Shown: piece after piece, positions 1 to 12,715 of the stretch
Numbering within the stretch: the first letter of the stretch is position 1
Layout of the letters: each line of letters starts with the position of its first letter
IMG/VR virus record: IMGVR_UViG_2565956711_000001
DNA: 12,715 nt
Direction: 5' to 3' (one strand)
DNA from: a virus
Taxonomy: Monodnaviria > Loebvirae > Hofneiviricota > Faserviricetes > Tubulavirales > Inoviridae
Notes under the pieces: model-generated
Told to the model about the DNA's origin: nothing
The model's database searches: none
Seen by the model: only the letters and a program-made list of their open reading frames with translations
Translations under genes and position numbers: made by a program

Positions 1-297
1 TCACCATTCCTCACGCCTTGCCGGTGAATCAAACTCCTTTTCTACAAAATTTGCAGGGTTTGTATAAGTTGAAAGCGGTGCAGAACTGAGCGAAATCTCC
101 ACCCCTAAAATATTTAACACTTTGTATAGACGCTCAAAACTTGCTTTTGAAGGATTTGACTCAAGGCGAGCATAAGTCTGCTGGGTTATACCCAACATGG
201 CAGATAATTCTCTTTGAGTTAATCCTTTTGATTTACGAAAACCAATTAGAAGTGGACGTAACTGGCTAAGAAGTCTAACGGGAAAAATAGTATCCAT
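1..297 (-). CDS. HipB-like XRE-family helix-turn-helix regulator/antitoxin, 98 aa, complete (stop TGA = revcomp of 1-3)
   Basis: The XRE HTH core (GLTQRELSAMLGITQQTYARLESN) and the C-terminal ...EEW resemble E. coli HipB, which ends ...NLEW. The stop overlaps a possible GTG (GTGA) of a downstream gene lying off-window, as in hipBA. The sequence differs from K-12 HipB and the context does not match the K-12 hipBA-dif arrangement. Confidence 0.6.
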   Translation of the reverse strand: MDTIFPVRLLSQLRPLLIGFRKSKGLTQRELSAMLGITQQTYARLESNPSKASFERLYKVLNILGVEISLSSAPLSTYTNPANFVEKEFDSPARREEW

Positions 298-354
298 AAG
301 TAGGTGGCCATGTCGATTACTTCATAATAAATTCACTCCTCGTAAGAAACAGCC

Positions 355-393
355 TGTAAGGTGTCTTATTACTTTACAGCTTACAAGGTGTAA
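355..393. promoter_or_regulatory. Palindrome-rich putative operator/promoter region upstream of the HipB-like gene
   Basis: CTGTAA-N12-TTACAG (355-378) and the perfect palindrome CTTACA-AGG-TGTAAG (379-393) lie directly 5' of the minus-strand gene that starts at 297. XRE regulators are typically autoregulated through such sites. Confidence 0.3.
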
Positions 394-413
394 GGGTGAA
401 CTCGTTGTATTAA

Positions 414-608
414 CTAATACTGCTCAAATTTTAAAGGTTGCATCTCGCGCTGGCTGGGATTATATTTATTAAGGACTAGCATATAGTGGTGTACGCTGTT
501 ATCCTCTTTGTAATGAGGCTTATCAGTGTGTGAAGGGAGAGGGCGGACTCTGCTTTGCCCTCTCTCTTTCATGGACTTATTTAACTTTAAATGTTTTTTA
601 AAAGTCAT
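414..608 (-). CDS. Small basic ORF (64 aa) whose ATG overlaps the stop of the upstream 186-aa gene (ATGA); doubtful
   Basis: The ATGA overlap at 605-608 suggests translational coupling. The ORF contains a strong hairpin (537-564) and has no recognisable motifs. Confidence 0.15.
   Translation of the reverse strand: MTFKKHLKLNKSMKERGQSRVRPLPSHTDKPHYKEDNSVHHYMLVLNKYNPSQREMQPLKFEQY
537..564. terminator. GC-rich hairpin GAGAGGGC-N12-GCCCTCTC, possible bidirectional terminator
   Basis: An 8-bp perfect stem read directly. On the plus strand it is followed by TCTCTTTC. It lies about 40 bp downstream of the 605..1165 gene on the minus strand, where the tail is less U-rich. Confidence 0.3.
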
Positions 609-1165
609 TGCCTTATTGCAATGGTTTTATTAAAAATCCCAATCAATGTGTTTATTTTTTCATTTATCTTAATTTGCTTTTTCTCTTGCTCGAGAGAAAG
701 TTTTCTGAATTCATTTTCCCTGCTCGGCACGGCAATTATCAACTCTTCATAAATCTCCTTTGCTCCTGATACTTTTTCCAACTCGCTGCTGTATTTTTCG
801 ATAAGAGTTCTTATTTGAATATTTACATTTCTGTATTCATGACTGGTAGCACTTAAAACAAGTTGACTGGAATTTTTTTTGGGTGCCTCAATTAACTCTA
901 CGCTTTTCTTTACGACATTGAATTCAGATGTGACTGAGTATACATATTGATACGCGCCTGATTTTCTGACTTTACTCAATAATCCTTTTCTAACTAAACA
1001 CTGAATTTGGTTATAAGCAAAAGCTTTTGCCTTAAAATAACTTTTCGGAAGTGAAAATCGCTCGATAAGAATTTGAGCCACATCGTTACTGGTGAAGTTA
1101 TCTTTAGCAATATAGATTATTGCGGAAAATATGTACGACTCAGCGTTGGATACTCGACTATTCAT
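605..1165 (-). CDS. Hypothetical protein, 186 aa; N-terminal winged-helix DNA-binding fold (BlaI/CopY/PadR-like) plus C-terminal coiled coil; strongly AT-rich gene
   Basis: The motif ...YNQIQCLVRKGLLSKVRKSGAYQYVYSV... resembles the recognition helix and wing (LVKKGLL...EGRAYVY) of BlaI/MecI/CopY-type repressors. The C-terminal 80 aa are K/E-rich heptad-like. GC is about 30 percent against about 47-50 percent for its neighbours. Confidence 0.55.
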   Translation of the reverse strand: MNSRVSNAESYIFSAIIYIAKDNFTSNDVAQILIERFSLPKSYFKAKAFAYNQIQCLVRKGLLSKVRKSGAYQYVYSVTSEFNVVKKSVELIEAPKKNSSQLVLSATSHEYRNVNIQIRTLIEKYSSELEKVSGAKEIYEELIIAVPSRENEFRKLSLEQEKKQIKINEKINTLIGIFNKTIAIRQ

Positions 1166-1187
1166 ATGACTAAAACAAGGCAGTTAA

Positions 1188-1202
1188 CTTAGGATTGCTA
1201 AG
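1188..1202. promoter_or_regulatory. Operator-like palindrome 1, CTTAG-GATTG-CTAAG
   Basis: A perfect 5-bp inverted repeat with a 5-bp spacer, in the divergent intergenic region between the 605..1165 (-) and 1263..1595 (+) genes. Confidence 0.4.
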
Positions 1203-1221
1203 TATACAACAATGGCAGATA

Positions 1222-1236
1222 CTTAGACAATCTAAG
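1222..1236. promoter_or_regulatory. Operator-like palindrome 2, CTTAG-ACAAT-CTAAG
   Basis: A second copy of the same CTTAG-N5-CTAAG motif, 34 bp centre-to-centre from the first. This is a typical tandem-operator layout for a dimeric HTH repressor. Confidence 0.4.
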
Positions 1237-1262
1237 CATTCGAGGCCAATGAAGATGAATCA

Positions 1263-1595
1263 GTGTCTGAAAAAAATCCGATACCAGAAAGACTTAAGGA
1301 AGCGAGAAGCAGGGCGGGTTTATCACAGCGCTCATTGGGCCTCCTTGTTGGGTTTGATCCCGCTTCGGCTAGCAGTCGTATGAATCATTATGAGAAAGGG
1401 CGCCATGTCCCCGATATTGATACGCTTCGACGGATGGCGGCAGAGTTAAACGTGCCGTTGAACTACTTTTTTTGTGATGATCAGACCACAGCTGAACTTG
1501 CATTACTCATATCCCGGATGACAGAGGAAGAGCGAAGTAATCTTATCGAAGCACTCAAAAGGCATCCAGGCGAAAAGCATGCTGACAAAAAATGA
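1263..1595 (+). CDS. XRE/Cro-CI-family HTH transcriptional regulator, 110 aa (GTG start)
   Basis: LKEARSRAGLSQRSLGLLVGF...MNHYEKGRHVPDIDTLRRMAAELNVPLNYFF is a canonical XRE HTH followed by a short C-terminal extension. It is divergent from the wHTH gene, with the twin operators in between. Confidence 0.7.
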   Translation: MSEKNPIPERLKEARSRAGLSQRSLGLLVGFDPASASSRMNHYEKGRHVPDIDTLRRMAAELNVPLNYFFCDDQTTAELALLISRMTEEERSNLIEALKRHPGEKHADKK

Positions 1596-1756
1596 TATTA
1601 CATATAAAGCGACTGAACTTTTTGAAGGTAACGAAAGTGTAGCATTACACTGATGCAATGAACCAAGCAGGACATTACAGTGGGAGACGCCCTCTCAGAT
1701 AACAAACTCAAAAGAGGGAGCCATAAATATATGTTTATCAATACAACCAGCATTCT

Positions 1757-1780
1757 GCCGACAACCGGGAAGCTGTCGGC
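1757..1780. terminator. Hairpin GCCGACA-N10-TGTCGGC, weak candidate terminator downstream of the recombinase operon
   Basis: A 7-bp perfect stem 20 bp beyond the stop of the 1800..2234 gene on the minus strand. The downstream tail is only moderately U-rich. Confidence 0.25.
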
Positions 1781-1799
1781 TAAATCTTCCATGTCAGAA

Positions 1800-2234
1800 T
1801 TATGACGACTTATGTAGTTCCCGAATCATATGGTTGGCCAACAGGCTTTCCACCGGTATAACCGAATTGATTTTTACCGCTTTGACAATTTCTATCAACG
1901 AAAGGGTATTTTGCGCTAATTGGTCTCGCAATTCACTTACTTCAGCCTGCAACTGCTGGTTTCTGGCCAGTAAAGCCTGACGGGTTTTGCGGTTGACGTA
2001 TTGCTGTTTTTCTTTTGGGCGTAGATTCAATGGGCCAAGTTGCTGGTCAACATAGGCAGCAATTAGGCGTTTACGCTCTAGGCTGCTCAGCGTACTTAAA
2101 CCACCGTTAACGATACCTTTTGCCTTGAGCCTAATATGCAGGGCCTTGGCGGAAATAGGGGACTTGTCAAAGCCTTCAACCAGCATCAGTTGTAATTCGT
2201 GCTCAATCAGTGTGTTCAGTTCCTTGCCGCGCAT
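1800..2234 (-). CDS. Small accessory protein (144 aa from ATG 2234..2232; 145 aa if TTG 2237..2235), last gene of the recombinase operon; possible HTH plus coiled coil (TnpC/excisionase-like role?)
   Basis: Its ATG shares the A of the TGA stop of the 788-aa gene (TGATG), indicating translational coupling. The protein has Q/L/E-rich heptads (ARNQQLQAEVSELRDQLAQN) and no catalytic motifs. Confidence 0.6.
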   Translation of the reverse strand: MRGKELNTLIEHELQLMLVEGFDKSPISAKALHIRLKAKGIVNGGLSTLSSLERKRLIAAYVDQQLGPLNLRPKEKQQYVNRKTRQALLARNQQLQAEVSELRDQLAQNTLSLIEIVKAVKINSVIPVESLLANHMIRELHKSS

Positions 2235-4600
2235 CAATCATTCTCCTGCATCAATTGTTGGTATTCAAGTGCAAAAAGCTGGGCCAGTGTACGGACTTTG
2301 CCCTCGGTGATTACTCCACCAGACAACACACTCTCAGCAGCAACCAGTTGTTGAGTCTTGGCACGACGATGCCATTGTGCTTGTATTGCCTCGAGTTGCT
2401 GTAACCGTCGTTCGATGTCGGCCAGTCTGGTCTGGTAATCAGGCTGATGTTGAGTAAGTTGGGTCAACTTCGAATGTGCTTGCTGTAAAGCCTGTTTTTT
2501 GGCAATCAGATTTGGTAGCTCATCTATCCGGCCTGTCAGCGTGAAATGTTCACAAAAGGCAGCACTCTGGCATTTCAGTCGATAAGGACATCCCCAGAGG
2601 TTAACTTCCCGCATACAGGAGCCAAATTTCAGCGGATACAGCACGGCATGTCTTGCCACCATGTCAGAGGCTTGCTCTGGTCCTTCTGCGTCGCGGATTT
2701 CTTCAAAGGCGGCAGCAACATCTTCAAAGAGGCCGTTAGCAAATGACGCCTCGACAAACCTGGCTACATCATCCCGATCGTCAAAAGTATGCAGGTTGGC
2801 TTTGATGGTATTGTCCAAAGTCATGTGTTCCGTGACCGCCAGTTGGCCGGTCCGTTTGACGATATCCAGTGGCGTAGCAATGGAGGACGAAGAGGGCGAG
2901 ACAGTTAGTGCTGTCGAAATCGGCTGCAAGGGCACCAACGAGGCGGCTTTTCGCCGTTCTGCAAGCGCCAGATGTTGATAATGCTGATTCTGCGTGATGT
3001 CCACTCGACCCATCAACATTGCCTGTAAGTGGTCAGAGATATCCGCAATAGCAAGAAAGGTATTGATGTTGTGCCGGGGAATGTGGGTACGCATCCGCGT
3101 CGAGGTGCCATCCTCCTCCAGTAATTGATATTTGCTGAATACTGATCCATCAGGCTCAACGTTGCCTAAGAATTTATTCATAAGTGTGTTAGTGAAGGGT
3201 ATCGGTGTAGCCAGCAAAGCCAGTGTGCGCTTTAATGCCAGCGAACCCTTCTCGTGTAGAAATAGCAGATCCTCGTAGTTAACTTGGTAGCGTTTGCCAT
3301 TTTCCATCCAGGCGTGTGTACAGGGTTCGTTGGCATTCGCCAGACCAAATTCGGTCTTAATGTAATGATTGAGAGCAGTCTTGGAATAATAGATAGATTT
3401 GCTGTTTTTCGGGCCTGGTATTTCTTGAACGGGCAGCACACCTCTTTTGCTAAGGGCTTTGGATGTTTTGTCCCGTTGTCCTGCCCGGCCCCGAAAACTT
3501 GAGGTAGTTTGGGTGATGTACTTCACCACATCGTCCAGTTCGACTCGTTCACCGGGCATGTTGCTGATGGCCTGTGGCAGGTAATCAGCAAAAGATTTTG
3601 CCCGTAGATAGGTAAGATGGCTGCGTATTGGTGCGGTCAACATTTTAACGGTACTGAATATACTCTCGACCAGCGGTACTGCCAGCGGTTCTACCCAATG
3701 CGTTCGCTCCCCAGCACCTTTGACACCAACATAACGGATACCAAGAAAATAATCGGGTAATCCCTTGTCCTGAAATCGTTTGCAGATTGCCGGATCATCA
3801 ATCTGGCGTTTAAACAGGGCATCCTGTCTGAGATTAAACGCTTCAATGGAGCGAAAGCCGGTAATAACCAATAACAACAGGCAATTTAACGCGATTTTCT
3901 CAGCATCACTTTCCACCCGCTGGATTAATGCAACTATGTTCAGAAATCCGCGAATGGTAATCAACGCATCTTCACCATCGGTAGTGGTATCAGACAGCTT
4001 GGCCTGCTGTTTCAGCGCCATGGTTTCCCGGGCTTTGCGGGTCAAGTTGGTTTTGTTGGTATACTTCACATCAGAGTTGTATTGCAGTTTAACCAACGTA
4101 AATGTGAAGTGATTGACCAATTTTTGAAGGCTAACGCACCGCCCTTTATAGTTAGCTGTATTGGGGTCACTAGGAGATGAAACGCTACTGAGAAGATCCA
4201 TCGCTCGTTGAATGACAACTGTGCTCAGGTAAGATGGATGGGTCTGTCCTGTCTCATAAAGCATCGCATGGTACCATCGTTTCAGAATCATCAAAGTTGC
4301 CTTTGCCACCGCTGGCGACATACTCCTATTTCCCTGTCGGTAAACCACTACCAGCATAGCTTTCATGAACTGACTATATTCTTTGTCGATGGGCAGATGT
4401 TCTACAATACCTTTGAATCTGTTCATCTCATCAAAACGTAATGTATTTCTGCCGTTCCCTCGCAACCATCCACTTCCCTGGTTACCACTTACCCAGATAT
4501 GATCATTCCATGTTTGGGCAAAATCAGCAGACAGGTGCTGTTCGAACCATTTTTTTTGCTCTTCAATAAAAGCCTGAAAATGCTCAAAGTGATTTTTCAT
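2234..4600 (-). CDS. Large tyrosine recombinase (788 aa), third gene of a recombinase trio; C-terminal Cys cluster and long coiled-coil tail
   Basis: Catalytic signatures are present: box I Arg (LVITGFRSIEAF), HxxR (HIPRHNINTFLA) and the C-terminal LMGRVDITQNQHYQH with the tyrosine nucleophile. A Cys cluster follows (SCMREVNLWGCPYRLKCQSAAFCEHF), then Q/L-rich coiled coil. An AGGTGA Shine-Dalgarno sits 6 nt upstream of the ATG at 4600. Confidence 0.8.
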   Translation of the reverse strand: MKNHFEHFQAFIEEQKKWFEQHLSADFAQTWNDHIWVSGNQGSGWLRGNGRNTLRFDEMNRFKGIVEHLPIDKEYSQFMKAMLVVVYRQGNRSMSPAVAKATLMILKRWYHAMLYETGQTHPSYLSTVVIQRAMDLLSSVSSPSDPNTANYKGRCVSLQKLVNHFTFTLVKLQYNSDVKYTNKTNLTRKARETMALKQQAKLSDTTTDGEDALITIRGFLNIVALIQRVESDAEKIALNCLLLLVITGFRSIEAFNLRQDALFKRQIDDPAICKRFQDKGLPDYFLGIRYVGVKGAGERTHWVEPLAVPLVESIFSTVKMLTAPIRSHLTYLRAKSFADYLPQAISNMPGERVELDDVVKYITQTTSSFRGRAGQRDKTSKALSKRGVLPVQEIPGPKNSKSIYYSKTALNHYIKTEFGLANANEPCTHAWMENGKRYQVNYEDLLFLHEKGSLALKRTLALLATPIPFTNTLMNKFLGNVEPDGSVFSKYQLLEEDGTSTRMRTHIPRHNINTFLAIADISDHLQAMLMGRVDITQNQHYQHLALAERRKAASLVPLQPISTALTVSPSSSSIATPLDIVKRTGQLAVTEHMTLDNTIKANLHTFDDRDDVARFVEASFANGLFEDVAAAFEEIRDAEGPEQASDMVARHAVLYPLKFGSCMREVNLWGCPYRLKCQSAAFCEHFTLTGRIDELPNLIAKKQALQQAHSKLTQLTQHQPDYQTRLADIERRLQQLEAIQAQWHRRAKTQQLVAAESVLSGGVITEGKVRTLAQLFALEYQQLMQEND

Positions 4601-6149
4601 TGGACTTCACCTGTTCCTGATGAAAACGGCAGCGGGCGATAACAGACTCAATTTCAAACTGTGTGGTTTCATGGATTAAAATGAGCGGATTTCGGGAATT
4701 ACCTACACCGTCTGAAATAGCGATTAGTTCATCGACTTCTTTTTTGACGCATTCAAGTAGAGCCTGATGTTCACCATCCGTAAAAGGGCGATAATACAGA
4801 CAGCCGTAACAAGAACGCACTTCGCTGAAAGGGCATGTACTACTGTTCCTGGAGCAACCACCAATTTTATCATGCAACTCGTCACCAACGAGTCCCACCA
4901 CTGGATGGCCTTTCCAATGTGCTGAGTCGACCAGTTCCCCAGTGAGCATCATAGCCACCATATTTTGCCAAACGGGATTCGACCCAAGCGCTTTAGCACG
5001 GATCAAGGCCAACGCGGGAGTTGCCATAATGTAGTATTTAGCTACGGCAAGAGAGGTGTGCCCCAGTACATGTGCTATCTCTTCAGCGCTAGCACCTTGC
5101 ATCGCCAAAGAGTGCCCAACATTGTGGCGTAAATCAGTGGGTGTAATTGTGGGCAATGCAGCTTCGCCACATGCTACGGCGGCTTGATATTCAGGAGGAC
5201 AGAAATTTAGGATTGCCTGATTAATTGCCTGAGACACATAATGCGGAGCTGAAACGCTGAAATCGAATAGTTTATCTTCGGGGTTTTTCTTATATCTCAC
5301 GGTATAGTTCATAATTAACTCCCCAATTTCTGGGGGGATCGCCAGAAATAACCGCTCTGTCGTCACTCGTCTTTGTTTAGCATATGGTAAAAAAACACTG
5401 TATCGAATCAGACCAGATTCCTGATTTCGTGTATCGATACGAACATCTTTGACCGCCAGCCTAGCGAGTTGTACTGGGCGTGCACCCGTTACATAAGCCA
5501 ACCCAAGGATAGCTGCATTGCGCACTTCGCTGTGACTGAAACTTTTGCCATCGCGTAACAACGAAGCCATTTCAAACAGTCCATTGCAAATCATGTTTTT
5601 TTCAAGAGGGTCAAGAATATTATCGATTTCTTGGTAACCCCCCCAATGTTCGAGATACGGTCGAGGGACGAACTCAAGATCATCGTAATCTTCAAGATTG
5701 AAACCTGGGAATGTTTCAGCACAAAGTATTTTTAATCCGAATAACACGGAATAAAAAGTAGCATTATCAATATCCTCTTTTTCGATAAATAATCGGAGCG
5801 TACTAAGCGAAAACCCACCATGTTCTCGACAATATGAAATGATATTCCTCCAATCAAGGTGCAACGCTGGAAGTTTGGTTGGAAATCTCGTCGATGCATA
5901 TTTGAAACAGATATACTTGTTTAATTTATTTGAGATATAATCTTGATTGAAAACAAGATATCGCCGACTGCCTGAATAATCGAAAGTCCATTTATTTCCT
6001 TTGTTAACAATATATTTATCATCAAACTCCATTGCCGTTTTTAGATAAATTCGATCAGGAATATCGAGTTCAAAGATAGCCTTAGCTAAATCAGGAGGGT
6101 AAACTGAGTTCCCTTCGTCAGATTTTAATGCATTATCAAATGATGTCAT
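4584..6149 (-). CDS. Tyrosine recombinase (521 aa), second gene of the trio, with C-terminal Cys-rich extension
   Basis: VTGARPVQL (box I Arg), DLRHNVGHSLA (LRH motif) and VLGHTSLAVAKYYI (LGH...Y) are XerC-like catalytic motifs. The motif CSRNSSTCPFSEVRSCYGC follows the catalytic Tyr. The gene overlaps both neighbours (14 and 17 nt). Confidence 0.8.
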   Translation of the reverse strand: MTSFDNALKSDEGNSVYPPDLAKAIFELDIPDRIYLKTAMEFDDKYIVNKGNKWTFDYSGSRRYLVFNQDYISNKLNKYICFKYASTRFPTKLPALHLDWRNIISYCREHGGFSLSTLRLFIEKEDIDNATFYSVLFGLKILCAETFPGFNLEDYDDLEFVPRPYLEHWGGYQEIDNILDPLEKNMICNGLFEMASLLRDGKSFSHSEVRNAAILGLAYVTGARPVQLARLAVKDVRIDTRNQESGLIRYSVFLPYAKQRRVTTERLFLAIPPEIGELIMNYTVRYKKNPEDKLFDFSVSAPHYVSQAINQAILNFCPPEYQAAVACGEAALPTITPTDLRHNVGHSLAMQGASAEEIAHVLGHTSLAVAKYYIMATPALALIRAKALGSNPVWQNMVAMMLTGELVDSAHWKGHPVVGLVGDELHDKIGGCSRNSSTCPFSEVRSCYGCLYYRPFTDGEHQALLECVKKEVDELIAISDGVGNSRNPLILIHETTQFEIESVIARCRFHQEQVKSNEKSL

Positions 6150-7530
6150 CGTTATATCTATCCATTATAGTATCTAACGTATTATGTAGCGCTGCATTGT
6201 CTTGAATAATTCGTTGGACATTGGCAGCATTAGCCTGCTCAGACAGGAAACGTTTTGCATATAGATCAGGCATTTGACTTGTCGGACTCCATCCCCCCAT
6301 CAGTCGTAGTTCATCTTTAGCTTCTTCCATTATCCCTGAGAGGGAAGGGACTTCAGCAATAAAGTGTGTTTTATTTTGCTGGCTTTTCAAATATTTTAAA
6401 TGCCATATTTTTTGCAATGTCAAAAAGGCCCAAGTATGTCGGGTTGTATGCGGAGTCAATCGTTGCAACGAGTCAGAGTACAACGGTGATTTGTACTCTG
6501 GATATTGGTTAGTGAAGACCTGATCTATTTTCGAAAAAATAGAATGAACTGATGTGTAGGACAAAGGCTTCGCTGACTGTTGACTCGATGTAAAGATGAA
6601 ATCGTGTTTATCAGTTTTTGGTCGAAGCTTTGCTATATAAATGCTTAAAAAAATATAATCCTGCTTATCGAGCTCCAACACACGATTAGCCCATGCATTT
6701 TTGAGAGATGGCGCATTCTTTCTTGGTTCGTATGCCTCGTCGACAGTTGTCACAATCAAACTAAACTTATCACCTTTTAAATTAGGTTTAATTGAGCTGC
6801 ACTCTAACAACAATAGCTCACCTGTTCGTAAACCATAATTTAACAACAGACGAATAATCAAAAAATTGCGGAACTGAAGATGCCCGGAAGGGAAAGGATT
6901 TAGCGGGTTATGCTTTTGGGCAGAAGAGGGGGTTATTATTCCATACAGGCTGAGCACCATTGCCCCAGACAAACTCTGAAATCCTTGGCTGCTGTGACTA
7001 TGTTGCGAAAATTTGTTTGATGTAAGCGTTCGATAATTCTCCCGGCAAAGCTGTAAACGGGTGTGTAAACGCGAAGCCAAAAGTGATAATGCTTTGGGAG
7101 AGTCATCCCGGTATGCAGGTGATATGTAGGTGTTAATCAAAAAAGAAATGAAATGGATCACAGCACGAACTCTAACTGTATGAGTTAAGCTATTGGCTTT
7201 TGTGACTCTCGTTAAAGACAACACATTTGACTGGACGTTGTGGCCATTTTCTAGATACATCCAAAATGCGGGCATTTCACCGACAGCAATGTCTGGATTG
7301 TGGTCAGATGAATAGAAGCTGTAGCAAAACGAGACACCATACTTTTGCCTCCAGAATTCGTAAAAAAACTTCACAGATTGAAGTGAAGCTGACTGTGTGG
7401 ACAATGAGCGGAAAGCCAAATGGTCAATATGGTACCTAAGGGGATACAGCAACGGCAGAGAGGTTTCCAAGTCCATCAGGATCCATCGCCTTTTACGGCC
7501 TGAGATAACCAACTGCTTTAGTGAATACAC
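6136..7530 (-). CDS. Tyrosine recombinase (464 aa, GTG start), first gene of the trio (TnpA/RitA-like position)
   Basis: NYGLRTGELLLLE (box I), TPHTTRHTWA (HxxR) and LMGGWSPTSQMPDLYAKRF (Trp in place of the second His, as in Cre, then Tyr). A GAGG Shine-Dalgarno sits 8 nt upstream of GTG 7530..7528, and a GATAAT -10-like hexamer lies at 7546..7551 (minus). Confidence 0.8.
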   Translation of the reverse strand: MYSLKQLVISGRKRRWILMDLETSLPLLYPLRYHIDHLAFRSLSTQSASLQSVKFFYEFWRQKYGVSFCYSFYSSDHNPDIAVGEMPAFWMYLENGHNVQSNVLSLTRVTKANSLTHTVRVRAVIHFISFLINTYISPAYRDDSPKALSLLASRLHTRLQLCRENYRTLTSNKFSQHSHSSQGFQSLSGAMVLSLYGIITPSSAQKHNPLNPFPSGHLQFRNFLIIRLLLNYGLRTGELLLLECSSIKPNLKGDKFSLIVTTVDEAYEPRKNAPSLKNAWANRVLELDKQDYIFLSIYIAKLRPKTDKHDFIFTSSQQSAKPLSYTSVHSIFSKIDQVFTNQYPEYKSPLYSDSLQRLTPHTTRHTWAFLTLQKIWHLKYLKSQQNKTHFIAEVPSLSGIMEEAKDELRLMGGWSPTSQMPDLYAKRFLSEQANAANVQRIIQDNAALHNTLDTIMDRYNDDII

Positions 7531-7673
7531 AATATTTACCTCAAAATTATCATGGATATGAAGAGAATGTACTCTGTACCTAATGCAAGAAACGAGAGGG
7601 AGATCAGAAATCCTAACGTATTGATTTATCAGTTAGTGGGAGTGTCATATGAACTTATTTACCACAGTAGGTG

Positions 7674-7701
7674 ATTTAACATAATATACATTATGCGCAC
7701 C
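7674..7701 (-). other. dif: dif chromosome dimer resolution site (XerC/XerD), perfect 28-mer
   Basis: The plus strand reads ATTTAACATAATATACATTATGCGCACC. Its reverse complement, GGTGCGCATAA-TGTATA-TTATGTTAAAT, is identical to the E. coli/enterobacterial dif consensus. Confidence 0.9.
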
Positions 7702-7986
7702 AGTGCGCAGATACGCCAGAAATCAGCCTGTAACCATCACCACGGCATTAAACGGTCATCGCTGTTACGTTCTTTCGTCTTCGACCGTCAGCCATCCGTA
7801 TCGCTTCTGAATACGCCGGAATGAAAAACAGGCTTTGCAGTGCCGGGAATTATTATGGCTGACGCCATAATGCTGTTTATGTCCTCGCTTCGCTGCGGGG
7901 CTTCCGGCGCTAAGCGCCTCCCATGCCTGACGGCATAAAAACCGGATATGCCGCCACGTCACCGCATGATACGTCCGTCGCCACCA

Positions 7987-9249
7987 TCACCGCGCGCGCT
8001 CCTCGTGGGAACTCGGTGCGTGCGCGGCGCTGGCGCGCCTGACTTTTTTCGCCTGTAACACGACAAGAATATCCGTCTTGTTCTTCTCGTCAGATGAACT
8101 GGTGAGCCAGCCTTTTGGCAGAAAGCTGAACCCGGTATCGGCGTTTGTGACCTTCGATTCAGCCAGGCCACCCAGCAGAATAATATCCCCGTCAGCCGCT
8201 GATACCTCCGTATTCACCTCGCGCTTAATCAGCGTCGGGCTGTTATTCACGCCCGTATCCGTCTTCGCAAAGCTGGAAAGCTGCTGCTTAATCACAAGGT
8301 CAATATTGTCAGTCCGGATTTGCGGTTTCACGTCGAGGATAACGCCACTAGAGCGATATTCAATCGACTGGATCGGCCTGTTGTCGGCGTAGCTCACCTG
8401 ACCCAGCACCGGAACCTCGTTACCGACTGAAAACGTGGCAGATGCGCCATCCTTCACCCTGAGCCGCGGGGAACTGACGACATGAAAACGACTGTCCGTC
8501 CTGAAAAGCTCATACAGCGCATCAAGAGAGCCTGTATTCACCCGGATAAAGTTATCAAAACCGCCAGACGCGCCAATCTGTATATTCAGCTTGCCGGAAA
8601 GCAGCTTCGCCGCCAGTGCCAGCCCGGAACCGTTACGCTCACTGGTCTGAACCTCAAACACGTAAGCTGCGACAATCACTTCTTCAGAGGCAGTATCAAT
8701 CAGCGGTAAAAGCGTCTGCAACCGCTTAATCTCTGACTTCCGGCCATAATAAACCAGCACATCCCCGGTACGGTTCATAAAGTCCGATGCCGTACCCGCT
8801 ACGGCCGCTTCTGGCGATATCTGCCCGGACGGTAACGAGTTACGCTGACTGTTAAACTGCCCGGTAAACTGTCCGGCCAGAATGTCAGACAGATACGCCA
8901 CGGAACGGAAGCGAGGCCGATAAACAAAGGTCTCCTGCGGCGGCACATACACTTTCGGCGTGAACGGCGCCACGTAGTCAATGCCCTGTTTGTTATAAAT
9001 CGCAATGTTCATATTGCCGAGATAGCGCTTAATAAATGCCCGTTCATCGATATCCGGCGTGATACGGAACGTCACCACCTTATCGGATTTGGCAAGCTCC
9101 GGGTCAAGCATAAACGGCTTATCGAACACCTGAACGTAAATCATGTTCAGCGCCTGCGGCAGCGGAACAGCGTTGAGCTCCAGACTGACGCCCTTCGCCA
9201 TAACCAGCCCCGGAACCAGTAAAAAAAGTAAACCTGTTATCAGCTTCAT
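7987..9249 (-). CDS. Filamentous-phage pIV-like outer-membrane secretin (420 aa)
   Basis: An N-terminal signal peptide (MKLITGLLFLLVPGLVMA) and the C-terminal secretin motif ...LLGGLAESKVTNADTGFSFLPKGWL...ILVVLQAKKV parallel M13 pIV (...LLLGGLTDYKN...GVPFLSKIPLIG...LYVLVKATIV). The size matches pIV (426 aa). The start is coupled to pI by an ATGA overlap. Confidence 0.85.
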   Translation of the reverse strand: MKLITGLLFLLVPGLVMAKGVSLELNAVPLPQALNMIYVQVFDKPFMLDPELAKSDKVVTFRITPDIDERAFIKRYLGNMNIAIYNKQGIDYVAPFTPKVYVPPQETFVYRPRFRSVAYLSDILAGQFTGQFNSQRNSLPSGQISPEAAVAGTASDFMNRTGDVLVYYGRKSEIKRLQTLLPLIDTASEEVIVAAYVFEVQTSERNGSGLALAAKLLSGKLNIQIGASGGFDNFIRVNTGSLDALYELFRTDSRFHVVSSPRLRVKDGASATFSVGNEVPVLGQVSYADNRPIQSIEYRSSGVILDVKPQIRTDNIDLVIKQQLSSFAKTDTGVNNSPTLIKREVNTEVSAADGDIILLGGLAESKVTNADTGFSFLPKGWLTSSSDEKNKTDILVVLQAKKVRRASAAHAPSSHEERAR

Positions 9250-10280
9250 CGTATCGCCCCTGAATAAACCGTCACCGTTTCGCCGTCGATTTCACCCGTC
9301 ATCATCATGCCGTCAAAGCTGAACTGCGAAGCCGGCTCTATACGCAATCTGCCTGACGTGTCTGCAACAACAACCCATGCCTGACCATCGCGTTTAAGCC
9401 GTCCGGCAAGTCGCCATTTGTCCGACACAACGGGCTTAGCTGGCGCGGCAGGTACAAAAGACGCTGAATTATTTGCGGCGGGTAAATCTTTAGTCTGCTG
9501 TTCAGGCTCTGAATTACCGTTTGACGTGAAAAACCAGAACAGATAAAAAATGGCAATTACCGCCAGAATCAGTAACCCGACAGCTTTAAACCACAACATT
9601 TTAGAACTGAAAATATTCTGACGTTTATCGGTGACAAGTTCCCTTCCCTGCCCGTTCTCATGGGATTTATATAGGGGGAATATCGCCTTGTCATATTTAT
9701 TCTGATAACTGTTCGTCAGATTCGACTTAAACAGTTTGATACCCGTAAATACGTCCACACGGTAGCGGTTATGCAGACCCAGCGCCACATGCTTACTCAT
9801 GCGATACGTTGTTTCCACCCGGTCTTTAATGAATCGCGGAAGGTTGGCAACAGACTGATTCATAACCACTAAATCACAGGTTACGCCCGTTTTTTCATCG
9901 GCAAAATGGCGATGTTCTGCAATGAAAGAGCGATGATTTGCAGGAATCCCTTTATCGTTCTCCCATATGCGCCATGCTTCATCAATACAGATTAAATCCC
10001 CCGGACGGCAGAACGTATCATCCGCAATGCCTGAATCCGTTTTGTAGGGAAAGAAATTATCGTTCTGAACGTCTTCATTCTGAACAAGTAAAATTTCACC
10101 AAGTGATTCCCTGTCTGCCTTTTTAATATCAACGCAGTAATCATAAATACTTTGCGTGGCAAGGCCGTAAATATTACTGACAATGCGACGCCCAGCGATA
10201 CAGGCGGGAATAATGACGCTTGCCACCACTTCGTAAGATTTACCGCTTCCGGGAATGCCCACATACGCAGAAATAGCCAT
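9246..10280 (-). CDS. Filamentous-phage pI / Zot-family assembly ATPase (344 aa)
   Basis: An N-terminal Walker A (GIPGSGKS), a single mid-protein transmembrane segment (AVGLLILAVIAIFYLFWFF), and a position between the gVI and gIV homologues. Confidence 0.85.
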   Translation of the reverse strand: MAISAYVGIPGSGKSYEVVASVIIPACIAGRRIVSNIYGLATQSIYDYCVDIKKADRESLGEILLVQNEDVQNDNFFPYKTDSGIADDTFCRPGDLICIDEAWRIWENDKGIPANHRSFIAEHRHFADEKTGVTCDLVVMNQSVANLPRFIKDRVETTYRMSKHVALGLHNRYRVDVFTGIKLFKSNLTNSYQNKYDKAIFPLYKSHENGQGRELVTDKRQNIFSSKMLWFKAVGLLILAVIAIFYLFWFFTSNGNSEPEQQTKDLPAANNSASFVPAAPAKPVVSDKWRLAGRLKRDGQAWVVVADTSGRLRIEPASQFSFDGMMMTGEIDGETVTVYSGAIR

Positions 10281-10283
10281 AAA

Positions 10284-10571
10284 TTAACCAATCAAAGGAA
10301 TGCGACGAATAATAAAGCGCGTTAACAATGCTGAAAACATCAGTTTAATCCCTTCCGTGACCATAAACAGATTCACGAAATACCATACGCTATCAGGTAG
10401 TGAGGAAAACAACCCGGCAATATCAACAGATTTTGGCAACAGTGACGCCAGAACCGGAACAAACGCCTGTACGACAAAGTACAGGCCAAAAAACAGAATA
10501 AATTTGACAACCACCGTTCGCAGCACAAAACCCAGCGCCACGTTAAAGGCTGAAACCAGAATACCAAACAT
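10284..10571 (-). CDS. pVI-like minor coat protein (95 aa), hydrophobic
   Basis: A small multi-TM protein located between the pIII-like and pI-like genes, exactly as gVI is in Ff phages. It has no motif of its own beyond hydrophobicity and size. Confidence 0.6.
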   Translation of the reverse strand: MFGILVSAFNVALGFVLRTVVVKFILFFGLYFVVQAFVPVLASLLPKSVDIAGLFSSLPDSVWYFVNLFMVTEGIKLMFSALLTRFIIRRIPLIG

Positions 10572-10581
10572 AACGCCTCCG

Positions 10582-12465
10582 TCACGCAGTCAGAATGATA
10601 CGCAGCGAAATAATGCCCCAGATAAGCAGGAATACCGCTTTCAGAAGTGGCCTGATTTTTTCCAGAAGCTCGCAGTGAGAATCAATGGAATATTTATTGT
10701 CCCAGAGTTCGAACGACCATACCGGACACTGAACATCCTTCGATGAAATACTCAGGTTTTTAATGTCCGGCATTAATTCTGTAATTGGCTTGAGAATTTC
10801 CTCACCTGTAGGCGGTTTTTCAAGTTCCGGCGATTTAATGCCGGGGTCTTCGCCTAAATCAACAGAAGTATCGGTATCTGTGCCTGTACCAGGGTGTACA
10901 CCTGTATCCGTTCCCGCACCGGGTCTGGCATTAACCCACGACTGAGGAACGACAACCGGACTATAAAGCAAGCCCTTATCAAGTTTTACGCCAACAGCAT
11001 TAGCCGCAGCCGTCAGTTCAGCCGCCGTAAAAGGTTTATCAAGCGGTATCCCCTGATATCCTTCCTGAACAACAGTCTGACCTGCAAGGCCATTAATAAG
11101 ATTAACCAGCGCAGCCGGGTTTAACTGTTCCTCCGGCTTGAAATCTATATTATCAATAACCTCGCCATTAATTACCTGAGGTAAATTTGATGTATCAAAT
11201 TCTGTATTAAAAAATATCTGGTCTTTAACATCCTGAACATCATTCGTCGTTTTATACACGGCCTTCTCAGGGTGGCAAATACTTTTCCACTGCGTTTTGG
11301 GATTATCAGCCGTACTGCCCGGCGCAGGTACTTTCTCGCTTTTACATAAATCCCATGAGTTTTCAAGCGTAACCGTTGTTGTTCCAACAGATAAAACCAC
11401 AGTTACAATCGATGAATATCCACCAAAATAAGGATTCGGCTTTTCATACTGAAAGTCTTTAACGGAAACCGAATAAACCTTAAAATTTCTTGGCATCCTG
11501 ATATGTAAGTTATTGTCGTCAGACGCCTCATGATAAGTCACATTGGAATGAGAATAACCATTAATCGACTTATAAAGCGCAATCATTACCGGATTATCAC
11601 TGACAAGTACAGCATCGCCCTTTGCATCCCTGATATCAGTCGAATAAGGATATTTAGTACCCTTAACTGACACACGATATACATCATTCGGTAATGGCTG
11701 GCTTATCGGCGGTGGTGCATCAATATTGTAATAGGTTGGCGCAATCTGAACAGGTTTAACCTGATGATTATAAGGGCTTATCGAGTCCTGAATATTCTTC
11801 GCAGAAAAGCCAGTAGCATCAGAGGGCAAATAAACAGCAACAGGGCTTTTAGGTGAAGGTGCAACAGAAGAAGTAACAGTAGCGCCATTGGACAAATTAA
11901 GTAAATAAGTTCCATCATCCTGTTTTATTCCACTTGTAATATATTCAACAGCTTTTGCGCCCTGCTTTAAAGCAAGGTCAGCAACGGAAATAACACCCGC
12001 AGCCTGCCCCAGCAATCCCCATGTTGTCTGTCCGGCAGCCATCATATTACTGCCAAAACTTGAAATACCCGTGGATATCGAATCGTCAATTGTATGCTTC
12101 GCAAGGCCATAAGCAGCCGCGAAAACTGACGTTCCGGTGCAAAGCTGAGGATTACCCACTTTCTCGCCACACATGCGGATTGAATCAAAAACGTCAGGAC
12201 GTTCGCGTATAACCTCCGCAGCGACAGCGATACCCGCGCCCATACCGAGAGAACTGGCACCCGTTGCGAATACACGCCCCGCAGATTGAGAAACAACCTG
12301 AGCTTCACGGGTTTCAACCATTTGCTGAATTACACGTCCAAATCCGTCTGCTGTTACTGCATCAGCATGTACACCGGATGAAACCAGTAAAGACAATATA
12401 GTAATACCTAACTTTCCAGACCCTGAATGACCGCCCAGGCGCATAAAAGCCCCCATAAAAAACAC
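10582..12465 (-). CDS. pIII-like minor coat / host-adsorption protein (627 aa; true start may be Met8 at 12444)
   Basis: A signal-peptide-like N-terminus and Gly/Thr/Asp-rich flexible linkers (GAGTDTGVHPGTGTDTDTSVDLGEDPG) separate globular domains. A C-terminal membrane anchor (LLKAVFLLIWGIISLRIIL) is typical of pIII. The gene lies between the gVIII and gVI homologues. Confidence 0.7.
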   Translation of the reverse strand: MFFMGAFMRLGGHSGSGKLGITILSLLVSSGVHADAVTADGFGRVIQQMVETREAQVVSQSAGRVFATGASSLGMGAGIAVAAEVIRERPDVFDSIRMCGEKVGNPQLCTGTSVFAAAYGLAKHTIDDSISTGISSFGSNMMAAGQTTWGLLGQAAGVISVADLALKQGAKAVEYITSGIKQDDGTYLLNLSNGATVTSSVAPSPKSPVAVYLPSDATGFSAKNIQDSISPYNHQVKPVQIAPTYYNIDAPPPISQPLPNDVYRVSVKGTKYPYSTDIRDAKGDAVLVSDNPVMIALYKSINGYSHSNVTYHEASDDNNLHIRMPRNFKVYSVSVKDFQYEKPNPYFGGYSSIVTVVLSVGTTTVTLENSWDLCKSEKVPAPGSTADNPKTQWKSICHPEKAVYKTTNDVQDVKDQIFFNTEFDTSNLPQVINGEVIDNIDFKPEEQLNPAALVNLINGLAGQTVVQEGYQGIPLDKPFTAAELTAAANAVGVKLDKGLLYSPVVVPQSWVNARPGAGTDTGVHPGTGTDTDTSVDLGEDPGIKSPELEKPPTGEEILKPITELMPDIKNLSISSKDVQCPVWSFELWDNKYSIDSHCELLEKIRPLLKAVFLLIWGIISLRIILTA

Positions 12466-12498
12466 ATAAAATCAAAAAGATATTGAGCCATAAATATA

Positions 12499-12518
12499 AA
12501 GGGGCTGTTACGCCCCTT
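12499..12518 (-). terminator. Rho-independent terminator downstream of the major coat gene
   Basis: Stem AAGGGGC/GCCCCTT with a 6-nt loop. On the minus strand it is followed by a TTTATATTTAT run. This is the position of the strong post-gVIII terminator in Ff phages. Confidence 0.5.
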
Positions 12519-12529
12519 ACCTTTATGAA

Positions 12530-12715
12530 TTAAGCGCCACGAACCATACGCAAAATCCAGCGGACACCCGCAGAACCTGCATACAGAACAATAAGAGAAC
12601 CCGCTACCGCCATAATTCCGGTCAGAACGGAACCGAAATTAACGCTGTTAGTCAGTGGCGTAAGGTCAATACCTTTACCACCAACAACATCACCTTCAGC
12701 AGCAAATACGGCAGG
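12530..12715 (-). CDS. pVIII-like major coat protein, 3' part (start beyond right edge); no M-start ORF in the track because it is truncated
   Basis: Minus-frame translation gives ...PAVFA|AEGDVVGGKGIDLTPLTNSVNFGSVLTGIMAVAGSLIVLYAGSAGVRWILRMVRGA*. This shows a signal-peptidase site, an acidic N-terminus (compare M13 AEGDDP), a hydrophobic core and a basic C-terminus. That is the hallmark layout of inovirus major coat proteins. Confidence 0.75.
   Translation of the reverse strand, partial: PAVFAAEGDVVGGKGIDLTPLTNSVNFGSVLTGIMAVAGSLIVLYAGSAGVRWILRMVRGA

Follow-up and report, generated by a model that had tools for sequence, protein, structure and literature searches.

The window analyzed here, a 12,715-nucleotide stretch of DNA from IMG/VR virus record IMGVR_UViG_2565956711_000001, comes from the replication terminus of Escherichia coli or a very close relative and carries four overlapping genes beside the dif site. 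It is likely that these genes make up ginABCD, the recombination module standing at the leading end of a GInt-type island (GInt, a genomic island bearing three integrases; Tn554 superfamily) that was inserted by site-specific recombination at dif. We also lean towards a more general reading, in which a large clade of GInts targets dif and plasmid Xer sites alike, integrating into the outer 7 bp of the XerD-binding arm by its own recombinase trio and not by XerCD, and rebuilds the site in the process. The element is of a known kind with a new, clade-wide dif target, and a prior description elsewhere is possible. A first-pass annotation of this DNA had taken the interval 1800–7673 for an entire and candidate undescribed dif-associated element. 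The class of element is already known: in architecture, gene order and colinear homology, it conforms to the GInts (ginABCD; Bardaji 2017, PMC5385486), which refutes the second part of that claim. As for the first part, the interval is the recombination module alone, and the island extends leftwards past window position 1.

The four open reading frames (ORFs) lie on the minus strand from 7530 down to 1800, and neighbors overlap by 14, 17 and 4 nt (Table 1), as expected from the annotation of three tandem tyrosine recombinases plus a small protein. The annotation had further credited each recombinase with a full catalytic signature. For GinA, this stands. GinA matches Pfam PF00589 (E=4e-7), and R235, K277, H361, R364, W414 and Y424 are each kept in at least 95% of 41 orthologues. 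For GinB, it does not. GinB also matches PF00589 (E=1e-10), but it has four of the six canonical residues; R224, K258, R341 and Y373 are invariant across 47 orthologues, and the two His positions both vary. GinC is large and divergent. It has no match in Pfam or NCBIfam, its phmmer search against the PDB gave spurious beta-lactamase matches alone (E about 1), and its match to a PHROG integrase is marginal (E=5e-4). In an alignment of 18 homologues down to 39% identity, TGFR250S.E, H506-x-x-R509-H, G-R532 and Y541 are invariant. GinC has the tyrosine recombinase fold, an assignment based on the invariant residues and on structure searches and not on sequence-family matches. Toward their C-termini, GinB (C432, C439, C447, C450) and GinC (C662, C671, C677, C683) carry invariant four-Cys clusters, whose pattern suggests a common zinc-binding module outside the catalytic domain. 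The ginD ORF overlaps the ginC stop codon. Its product has no family match in protein-family searches that included Pfam, NCBIfam and PHROG, and it is called ginD by position, which is that of GinD and TnpC, and by size alone.

The assignment to the GInts is carried by colinear protein matches. GinA aligns with residues 181–420 of Pseudomonas stutzeri DSM4166 GinA at 26% identity (E=6e-17), the DSM4166 GinA, GinB and GinC fragments being those printed in Bardaji 2017 Fig. S1 (PMC5385486). A trio on a Pseudomonas aeruginosa plasmid links the two groups: its protein 1 matches P. stutzeri GinA with E=2e-24, and its protein 3 (630 aa) matches the window GinC with E=7e-24. The entries available from the Idola 2023 census include an E. 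coli GInt with a ginC–ginD pair, to which the window GinA is 28% identical (E=3e-15) and its GinC is similar with E=6e-10. Overall, the identity of the window proteins to those of characterized GInts is about 20–29%. Identity between GInt families is reported to fall below 35%, and the levels of the matches to the P. stutzeri and E. coli GInts are in line with the 24–40% found between families (Bardaji 2017, PMC5385486). The same census entries give a different GInt for strain ECONIH5, in which the dif-adjacent copy is disrupted by an insertion sequence (IS).

The known GInts have a ginABCD operon and a cargo of 2.5–70 kb, their far end is AT-rich and their direct repeats are short and imperfect; circular excision products have been detected, and all four gin genes were needed in a Pseudomonas GInt (Bardaji 2017, PMC5385486). 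The island described here agrees with them in having three recombinase-like genes and a small gene at one end, cargo directly after ginD, an AT-rich distal end, short flanking direct repeats and site-specific insertion as well as colinear proteins. It differs in its target, dif or a plasmid Xer site and in either case the XerD arm, whereas the published targets are ABC-transporter, ssb and ribonucleotide-reductase genes (PMC5385486). It also differs in that the window GinC retains the first arginine, a residue that Pseudomonas GinC is reported to lack, in having conserved subterminal end motifs, and in a GinD that is not recognizably similar.

The Staphylococcus transposon Tn554 likewise has tandem tyrosine recombinases followed by a small protein and inserts site-specifically; however, it has two recombinases (TnpA and TnpB) rather than three, a small fixed cargo and att554 as its target. 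The recombinase-in-trio (RIT) and Gamma-Mobile-Trio (GMT) elements share three adjacent genes including tyrosine recombinases, and GMT islands also carry defense cargo. RIT elements encode three integrase proteins of ordinary size, have long inverted repeats and lack a fourth gene. The NCBIfam model of GmtY scored 17.5 bits against a cut-off of 340, and those of GmtX and GmtZ had no match. The resemblance to Tn554 and RIT elements remarked on in the first-pass annotation is borne out, and one curated database files the GInts under the Tn554 family, in the Tn6488 and Tn6571 subfamilies (DANMEL; PMC8865565).

Comparing the K-12 site with both island ends puts the insertion in the XerD-binding arm of dif, at its outer 7 bp (GTTAAAT). 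The sequence ATTTAACATAATATACATTATGCGCACC at 7674–7701 is the exact reverse complement of E. coli dif, whose K-12 copy lies between yneL and hipA. With a slash marking the junction, the empty site in K-12 reads ...cactcagacatg/ATTTAACATAATATACATTATGCGCACC (gacatg/ATTTAACATAATATACATTATGCGCACC), the window junction reads ...cacagtaggtg/ATTTAAC...(dif), and the distal end of the same island in E. coli EC09 reads ...cactcagacatgATTTAAC/ttatgttgtgtgag... (gacatgATTTAAC/ttatgttgtg). The 9-bp TGATTTAAC is found at both island ends in EC09 and once at the K-12 empty site, and therefore the island sits within the outer part of the XerD-binding arm. In Escherichia whittamii and on plasmid pCP131, the direct repeat measures 7–8 bp. 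The ginA side ends up with a complete, rebuilt dif and the far side with the core alone; there the 7-bp core stands beside the AT-rich element end, as TATGAAC-N12-AACATAA-GTTAAAT, with neither the central region nor the XerC arm. In the terminal segment beside ginA, one motif, CATATGAACTTA (gin strand TAAGTTCATATG), lies at 7646–7657, 16 nt from the core, and a second, TAACGTATTGATT, lies at 7614–7626. An inverted AGTTCATA motif is found 16–19 nt from the 7-bp core at both ends. The first-pass annotation had put a perfect dif 144 bp from the operon. The match to K-12 dif is indeed perfect, 28 of 28, but the site starts at 7674 and not at 7673, and the GTG start of ginA is 143 bp from the island end and from dif. 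Other E. coli alleles, 81–86% identical over the ginB–ginD part and with a ginA too divergent for megablast, are also placed 145–146 bp from dif.

An exact location at dif is where Xer-dependent elements accumulate, and a filamentous prophage sits on the other side of this very site, so it might be supposed that the island is like an integrative mobile element exploiting Xer (IMEX), put there by the host XerC and XerD, with the three recombinases accessory or unrelated to integration. IMEX such as CTX-phi, and the inovirus across this dif, do occupy dif, form arrays and leave a functional dif behind. However, they have no integrase and use a dif-like attP through XerC/XerD, whereas the window island has three recombinases of its own. 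Xer recombinases exchange strands where the 6-bp central region borders on the arms, yet the sequence shared by the two ends of the island is the outer XerD arm, and the distal junction has those outer 7 bp without the central region or the XerC arm. The recombinases that the island encodes form a conserved set, and a related GInt requires all four genes to move. Xer-mediated integration of the island is unlikely, and we regard this account of it as very unlikely.

The dif association is not peculiar to the window. A scan with the GinC alignment, taking one genome per species, gave 60 loci. A strict 28-bp dif is present upstream of ginA on the gin strand in 40 of these and on the opposite strand in none, and three more loci match dif when the XerC arm is relaxed or break off at a contig end, giving 43 of 60. 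Among the loci with the full 10 kb of upstream sequence, dif is present in 37 of 41. The XerC arms track the taxonomy of the host: GGTGCGCATAA in enterics, ATTTCGTATAA in Acinetobacter, TTTTCGCATAA in Psychrobacter and ..GCGCATTA in Vibrio. Since they do so, the dif copies are host sites and not a sequence borne by the element. A conserved motif of the type T[AT]A[GC]TTCAT[AG] follows about 16–17 variable nt past dif, with an inverted copy near the far end; in the related loci listed, the TTCAT-type motif is present after dif in 40 of 40 (39 TTCAT and one TTCAC). The gap between dif and ginA, measured in 32 loci, is 79–148 bp in 20 and 300–3,207 bp in 12. The association spans at least 40 species, and the clade ranges over Enterobacterales, Moraxellaceae, Vibrionaceae, Aeromonas, Shewanella and Kangiella together with Pseudomonas and enterobacterial plasmids. 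The first-pass annotation asked whether the module sits next to dif elsewhere, and in 43 of 60 loci from other species it does, always in the same orientation. Its suggestion that a dif-proximal sequence is specifically targeted is supported, by insertion into the XerD arm in the chromosomes of many genera and into plasmid Xer sites. Comparison with related strains has likewise supplied the empty site in K-12, both junctions and the direct repeat.

Some loci in this set have features of their own. The gap between dif and ginA reaches 2.5–3.2 kb in Psychrobacter and Photobacterium loci (L020, L021, L031, L034, L043, L045, L053, L056, L064), and in L020 it holds an extra 422-aa ORF, which gives some sub-families a fifth leading-end gene. 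On one contig of Acinetobacter sp. NIPH 2699, a pair of elements stands in tandem beside dif (L028 and L040), the distal end of the one being fused to the ginA-side end of its neighbor. Of the two, the one lying further from dif (L040) is decayed, with a truncated ginA and a frameshifted ginC, which is what would be expected if newcomers always insert at dif.

Such an array with a decayed older copy would also fit elements that never vacate their site, and this brings up strand-biased circularizing integrative elements (SE; intA-tfp-intB-srap). These are a sister group of four-gene tyrosine recombinase elements in Gammaproteobacteria that copy out one strand and leave no empty site (Idola 2023, PMC10214605). 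If the island were an SE instead of a GInt, its large third protein keeping R-H-R-Y would correspond to IntB; there is overlap between the host range of the SE and the hosts in which its distant relatives occur (Vibrio, Shewanella, Aeromonas, Acinetobacter), and the subterminal inverted AGTTCATA motifs around a short core recall the C/C' motifs with their 6-bp spacer. Both have four core genes, with an ordinary and a large RHRY recombinase and a small protein in fourth place; both have imperfect inverted motifs at their ends, a short core or spacer and a specific target; and both lack conjugation genes and live in gammaproteobacterial hosts (PMC10214605). The C/C' repeats of 13–19 bp abut the 6-bp spacer; the motif here is similar in spirit, with a different spacing of 16–19 nt from a 7-bp core. 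Against an SE, the second SE protein, Tfp, is noncatalytic, whereas the second protein here has a PF00589 match (E=1e-10) and invariant R224, K258, R341 and Y373. GinA, GinB and GinC are colinear with the P. stutzeri GInt proteins and match the census GInt, the SE being compared through their published description. We consider an SE identity improbable and keep to that of a GInt.

Plasmids carry the module as well. The 143-bp terminal segment is 95–100% identical on 142 of the 143 matching plasmids, which are mostly conjugative and come from Escherichia, Salmonella, Klebsiella and other genera. On pCP131-IncHI1, the gin operon is 99.8% identical to that of the window and the element has its own distal end, TATGAAC...AACATAAGTTAAAT. 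It abuts an Xer-type site, ATTTAACATAA-TGCTGA-TTATACGCAC, at the same position as in dif. On other plasmids, the left flank of this element runs directly into that Xer site. A synthetic 600-bp empty plasmid site is contiguous in no plasmid; the left flank, the whole Xer site and about 30 bp are contiguous in several plasmids, and in others the right flank begins exactly at the Xer site. The joining of the left flank to the Xer site is consistent with an unoccupied state in which Xer recombination has shuffled the plasmid modules. The flanks of an Xer-like site, ATTTAACATAATGCTGATTATACGCAC (L006 17874–17900), occur on IncHI-type and Klebsiella plasmids in varied combinations, the breakpoint lying exactly at the site, which likewise fits shuffling by Xer. 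The P. aeruginosa plasmid trio and a Vibrio harveyi plasmid member are also at Xer-like sites, and a canonical E. coli GInt is not at one.

The chromosome of Enterobacter wuhouensis matches the window operon at 99.8% identity, and GinC is 100% identical on Klebsiella and Salmonella plasmids. Near-identity of this degree in an Enterobacter chromosome and on plasmids of two other genera points to recent transfer. The mobility of the module envisaged in the first-pass annotation is thereby upheld, given the empty site in K-12 and the near-identical copies on an Enterobacter chromosome and on conjugative plasmids. The opposite notion, that the locus is an immobile remnant or a conserved core feature of the terminus region, might draw on the EC09 island being riddled with IS elements and on several copies being IS-disrupted or truncated. 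A core feature does not agree with the empty site of K-12 and most E. coli strains, any match at all being found in only 296 of 5,426 genomes. A remnant does not agree with four intact, overlapping ORFs and a near-identical operon in Enterobacter chromosomes and on the conjugative plasmids of four genera. This notion is most improbable.

We propose the following mechanism. The island would move as a circle, in which the 7–9 bp core (GTTAAAT[CA]) recombines with the same bases in the XerD arm, its outermost 7 bp. Since both partners share this core, recombination leaves a whole dif at the junction next to ginA. The circular junction is predicted to read ...AACATAA-GTTAAAT-CACCTACTG... By analogy with the Pseudomonas GInt in which all four genes are required, GinA, GinB, GinC and GinD, and not the host XerCD, would catalyze the reaction. 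In attB, only the dif side is conserved between hosts, so the need for three recombinases may reflect four unlike half-sites; three different recombinases would then serve the four dissimilar half-sites of an attI x attB synapse. A role for dif-bound XerD in the synapse, as a landmark or as a partner, is much less likely. With dif as its target, the island would find a landing site, conserved and essential, in whatever host it entered and on plasmids that carry Xer sites.

Several points weigh against these conclusions. Box II of GinB and box II of GinC match the DSM4166 fragments in a colinear fashion, and the matches are weak (E=0.013 for GinB; E=0.002 for GinC, against a 60-aa fragment). 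In hhalign, the GinC profile aligned to that of GinB in box II alone, with a nonsignificant E of 0.2. GinD has no detectable similarity to GinD WP_001062149 of another E. coli GInt. The window operon and its protein accessions are not among the entries available from the Idola 2023 census, an absence of little weight. Four loci with ample upstream sequence lack dif (L036, L040, L057, L065), of which at least L040 is the decayed second copy of a tandem array, and the direct repeat of 7–9 bp is shorter than the 10–17 nt published for GInts. Finally, excision, circularization, the need for the element's own recombinases and independence of XerCD are inferred for the dif-targeting family.

The site at issue is the chromosome-dimer resolution site and is conserved in essentially every circular bacterial chromosome, and to our knowledge, it has been thought to be colonized only by elements borrowing the host Xer recombinases. 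If our reading is true, there is a second, Xer-independent way to colonize dif, and dif is a universal and safe docking site into which an island can land without destroying it. Plasmid Xer sites would then be a ready shuttle between chromosome and conjugative plasmid. This would help to explain the intergenus spread of anti-phage defense and restriction systems and the hipA–ydeT hotspot in E. coli. That interval is E. coli defense hotspot #20, occupied in 62 of 783 genomes and listed independently of GInts, and defense-carrying GInts are already listed for E. coli (Hochhauser 2023, PMC10121019). Literature searches, with incomplete coverage and without most subscription journals, found no paper tying GInts to dif; the dif target, its clade-wide conservation, the use of plasmid Xer sites and the end motifs are unmentioned in the GInt, SE and E. 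coli defense-island papers. A well-understood DNA site in a tractable host would also allow the requirement for three recombinases to be tested. Islands stacked beside the XerD arm might also affect FtsK-activated dimer resolution.

Table 1. Gin module, its junction with dif and the neighboring island interior, in window coordinates.
Feature	Position	Strand	Description
ginA	6136..7530	-	tyrosine recombinase, 464 aa, GTG start; 446 aa from ATG 7476 (RefSeq choice)
ginB	4584..6149	-	tyrosine recombinase, 521 aa; 4-Cys cluster at C-terminus
ginC	2234..4600	-	large divergent tyrosine-recombinase-fold protein, 788 aa; 4-Cys cluster at C-terminus
ginD (by position and size)	1800..2237	-	small noncatalytic protein, 145 aa; 144 aa from ATG 2234
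ginA-proximal terminal segment (element side of attL)	7531..7673	-	a conserved subterminal motif and a second motif
crossover core / direct repeat TGATTTAAC	7672..7680	.	7-bp common core ATTTAAC (gin strand: GTTAAAT)
chromosomal dif (reverse complement of GGTGCGCATAATGTATATTATGTTAAAT)	7674..7701	-	28/28 identical to K-12 dif
dif, XerD arm	7674-7684		
dif, central region	7685-7690		
dif, XerC arm	7691-7701		
island interior beside ginD	1..1799	.	three ORFs; island runs on past window left edge
Xre/HipB-like helix-turn-helix (HTH)	1-297	-	Pfam, NCBIfam, PHROG HTH matches
186-aa ORF	605-1165	-	
RstR-like HTH	1263-1595	+	Pfam, NCBIfam, PHROG HTH matches

A simple scan of the minus strand between ginA and dif, where the first-pass annotation had placed the promoter region of the operon, found no sigma-70 consensus. 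The promoter-like sites near the island end (7658–7685, plus strand; TTTACC-16-CATAAT) all point outward across dif. In Pseudomonas, outward transcription from within ginA has been reported (Bardaji 2017, PMC5385486).

Over positions 1–7700, the window matches E. coli EC09 at 100% identity. Its right part matches E. coli G5 at 98.7% identity; the terminus region of G5 is rearranged, and this strain was therefore left out when the distal end was defined. The EC09 island is about 37.7 kb from the yneL side to dif, and the island's counts of FtsK orienting polar sequences (KOPS) are too low to be informative. Its cargo includes a Gabija-like nuclease–helicase pair, NACHT and SEC-C proteins and many IS elements. 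The G5 cargo includes a CBASS-like set, and there is type I restriction-modification cargo in XYEH3934 and on pCP131. In these four, the cargo after ginD differs behind the same or related operons. Beside ginD, the 1.7-kb three-gene module (window 1–1700) keeps 87–92% DNA identity behind very divergent gin operons, the operons that share it having GinC proteins only 30–64% identical (L012, L014, L015, L050, L052). This HTH/186-aa ORF/HTH set looks like a shared and exchanged, possibly regulatory, island module.

On the XerC side of dif, window 7702–12715 is an inovirus (filamentous) prophage with a secretin, Zot, DUF2523 and a 627-aa phrog_3942 protein. It is an independent insertion, and no evidence was found for the idea raised in the first-pass annotation that the module co-opts or protects Xer-dependent elements. 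The prophage is tandemly duplicated in E. coli G5, and its relatives in phage collections are distant (67–75% identity). To the right of dif in EC09 (L001 13819–16285) are an ISNCY transposase and a Shedu nuclease gene, followed by hipA. Since the Shedu gene is on the XerC side, both sides of dif collect defense genes.

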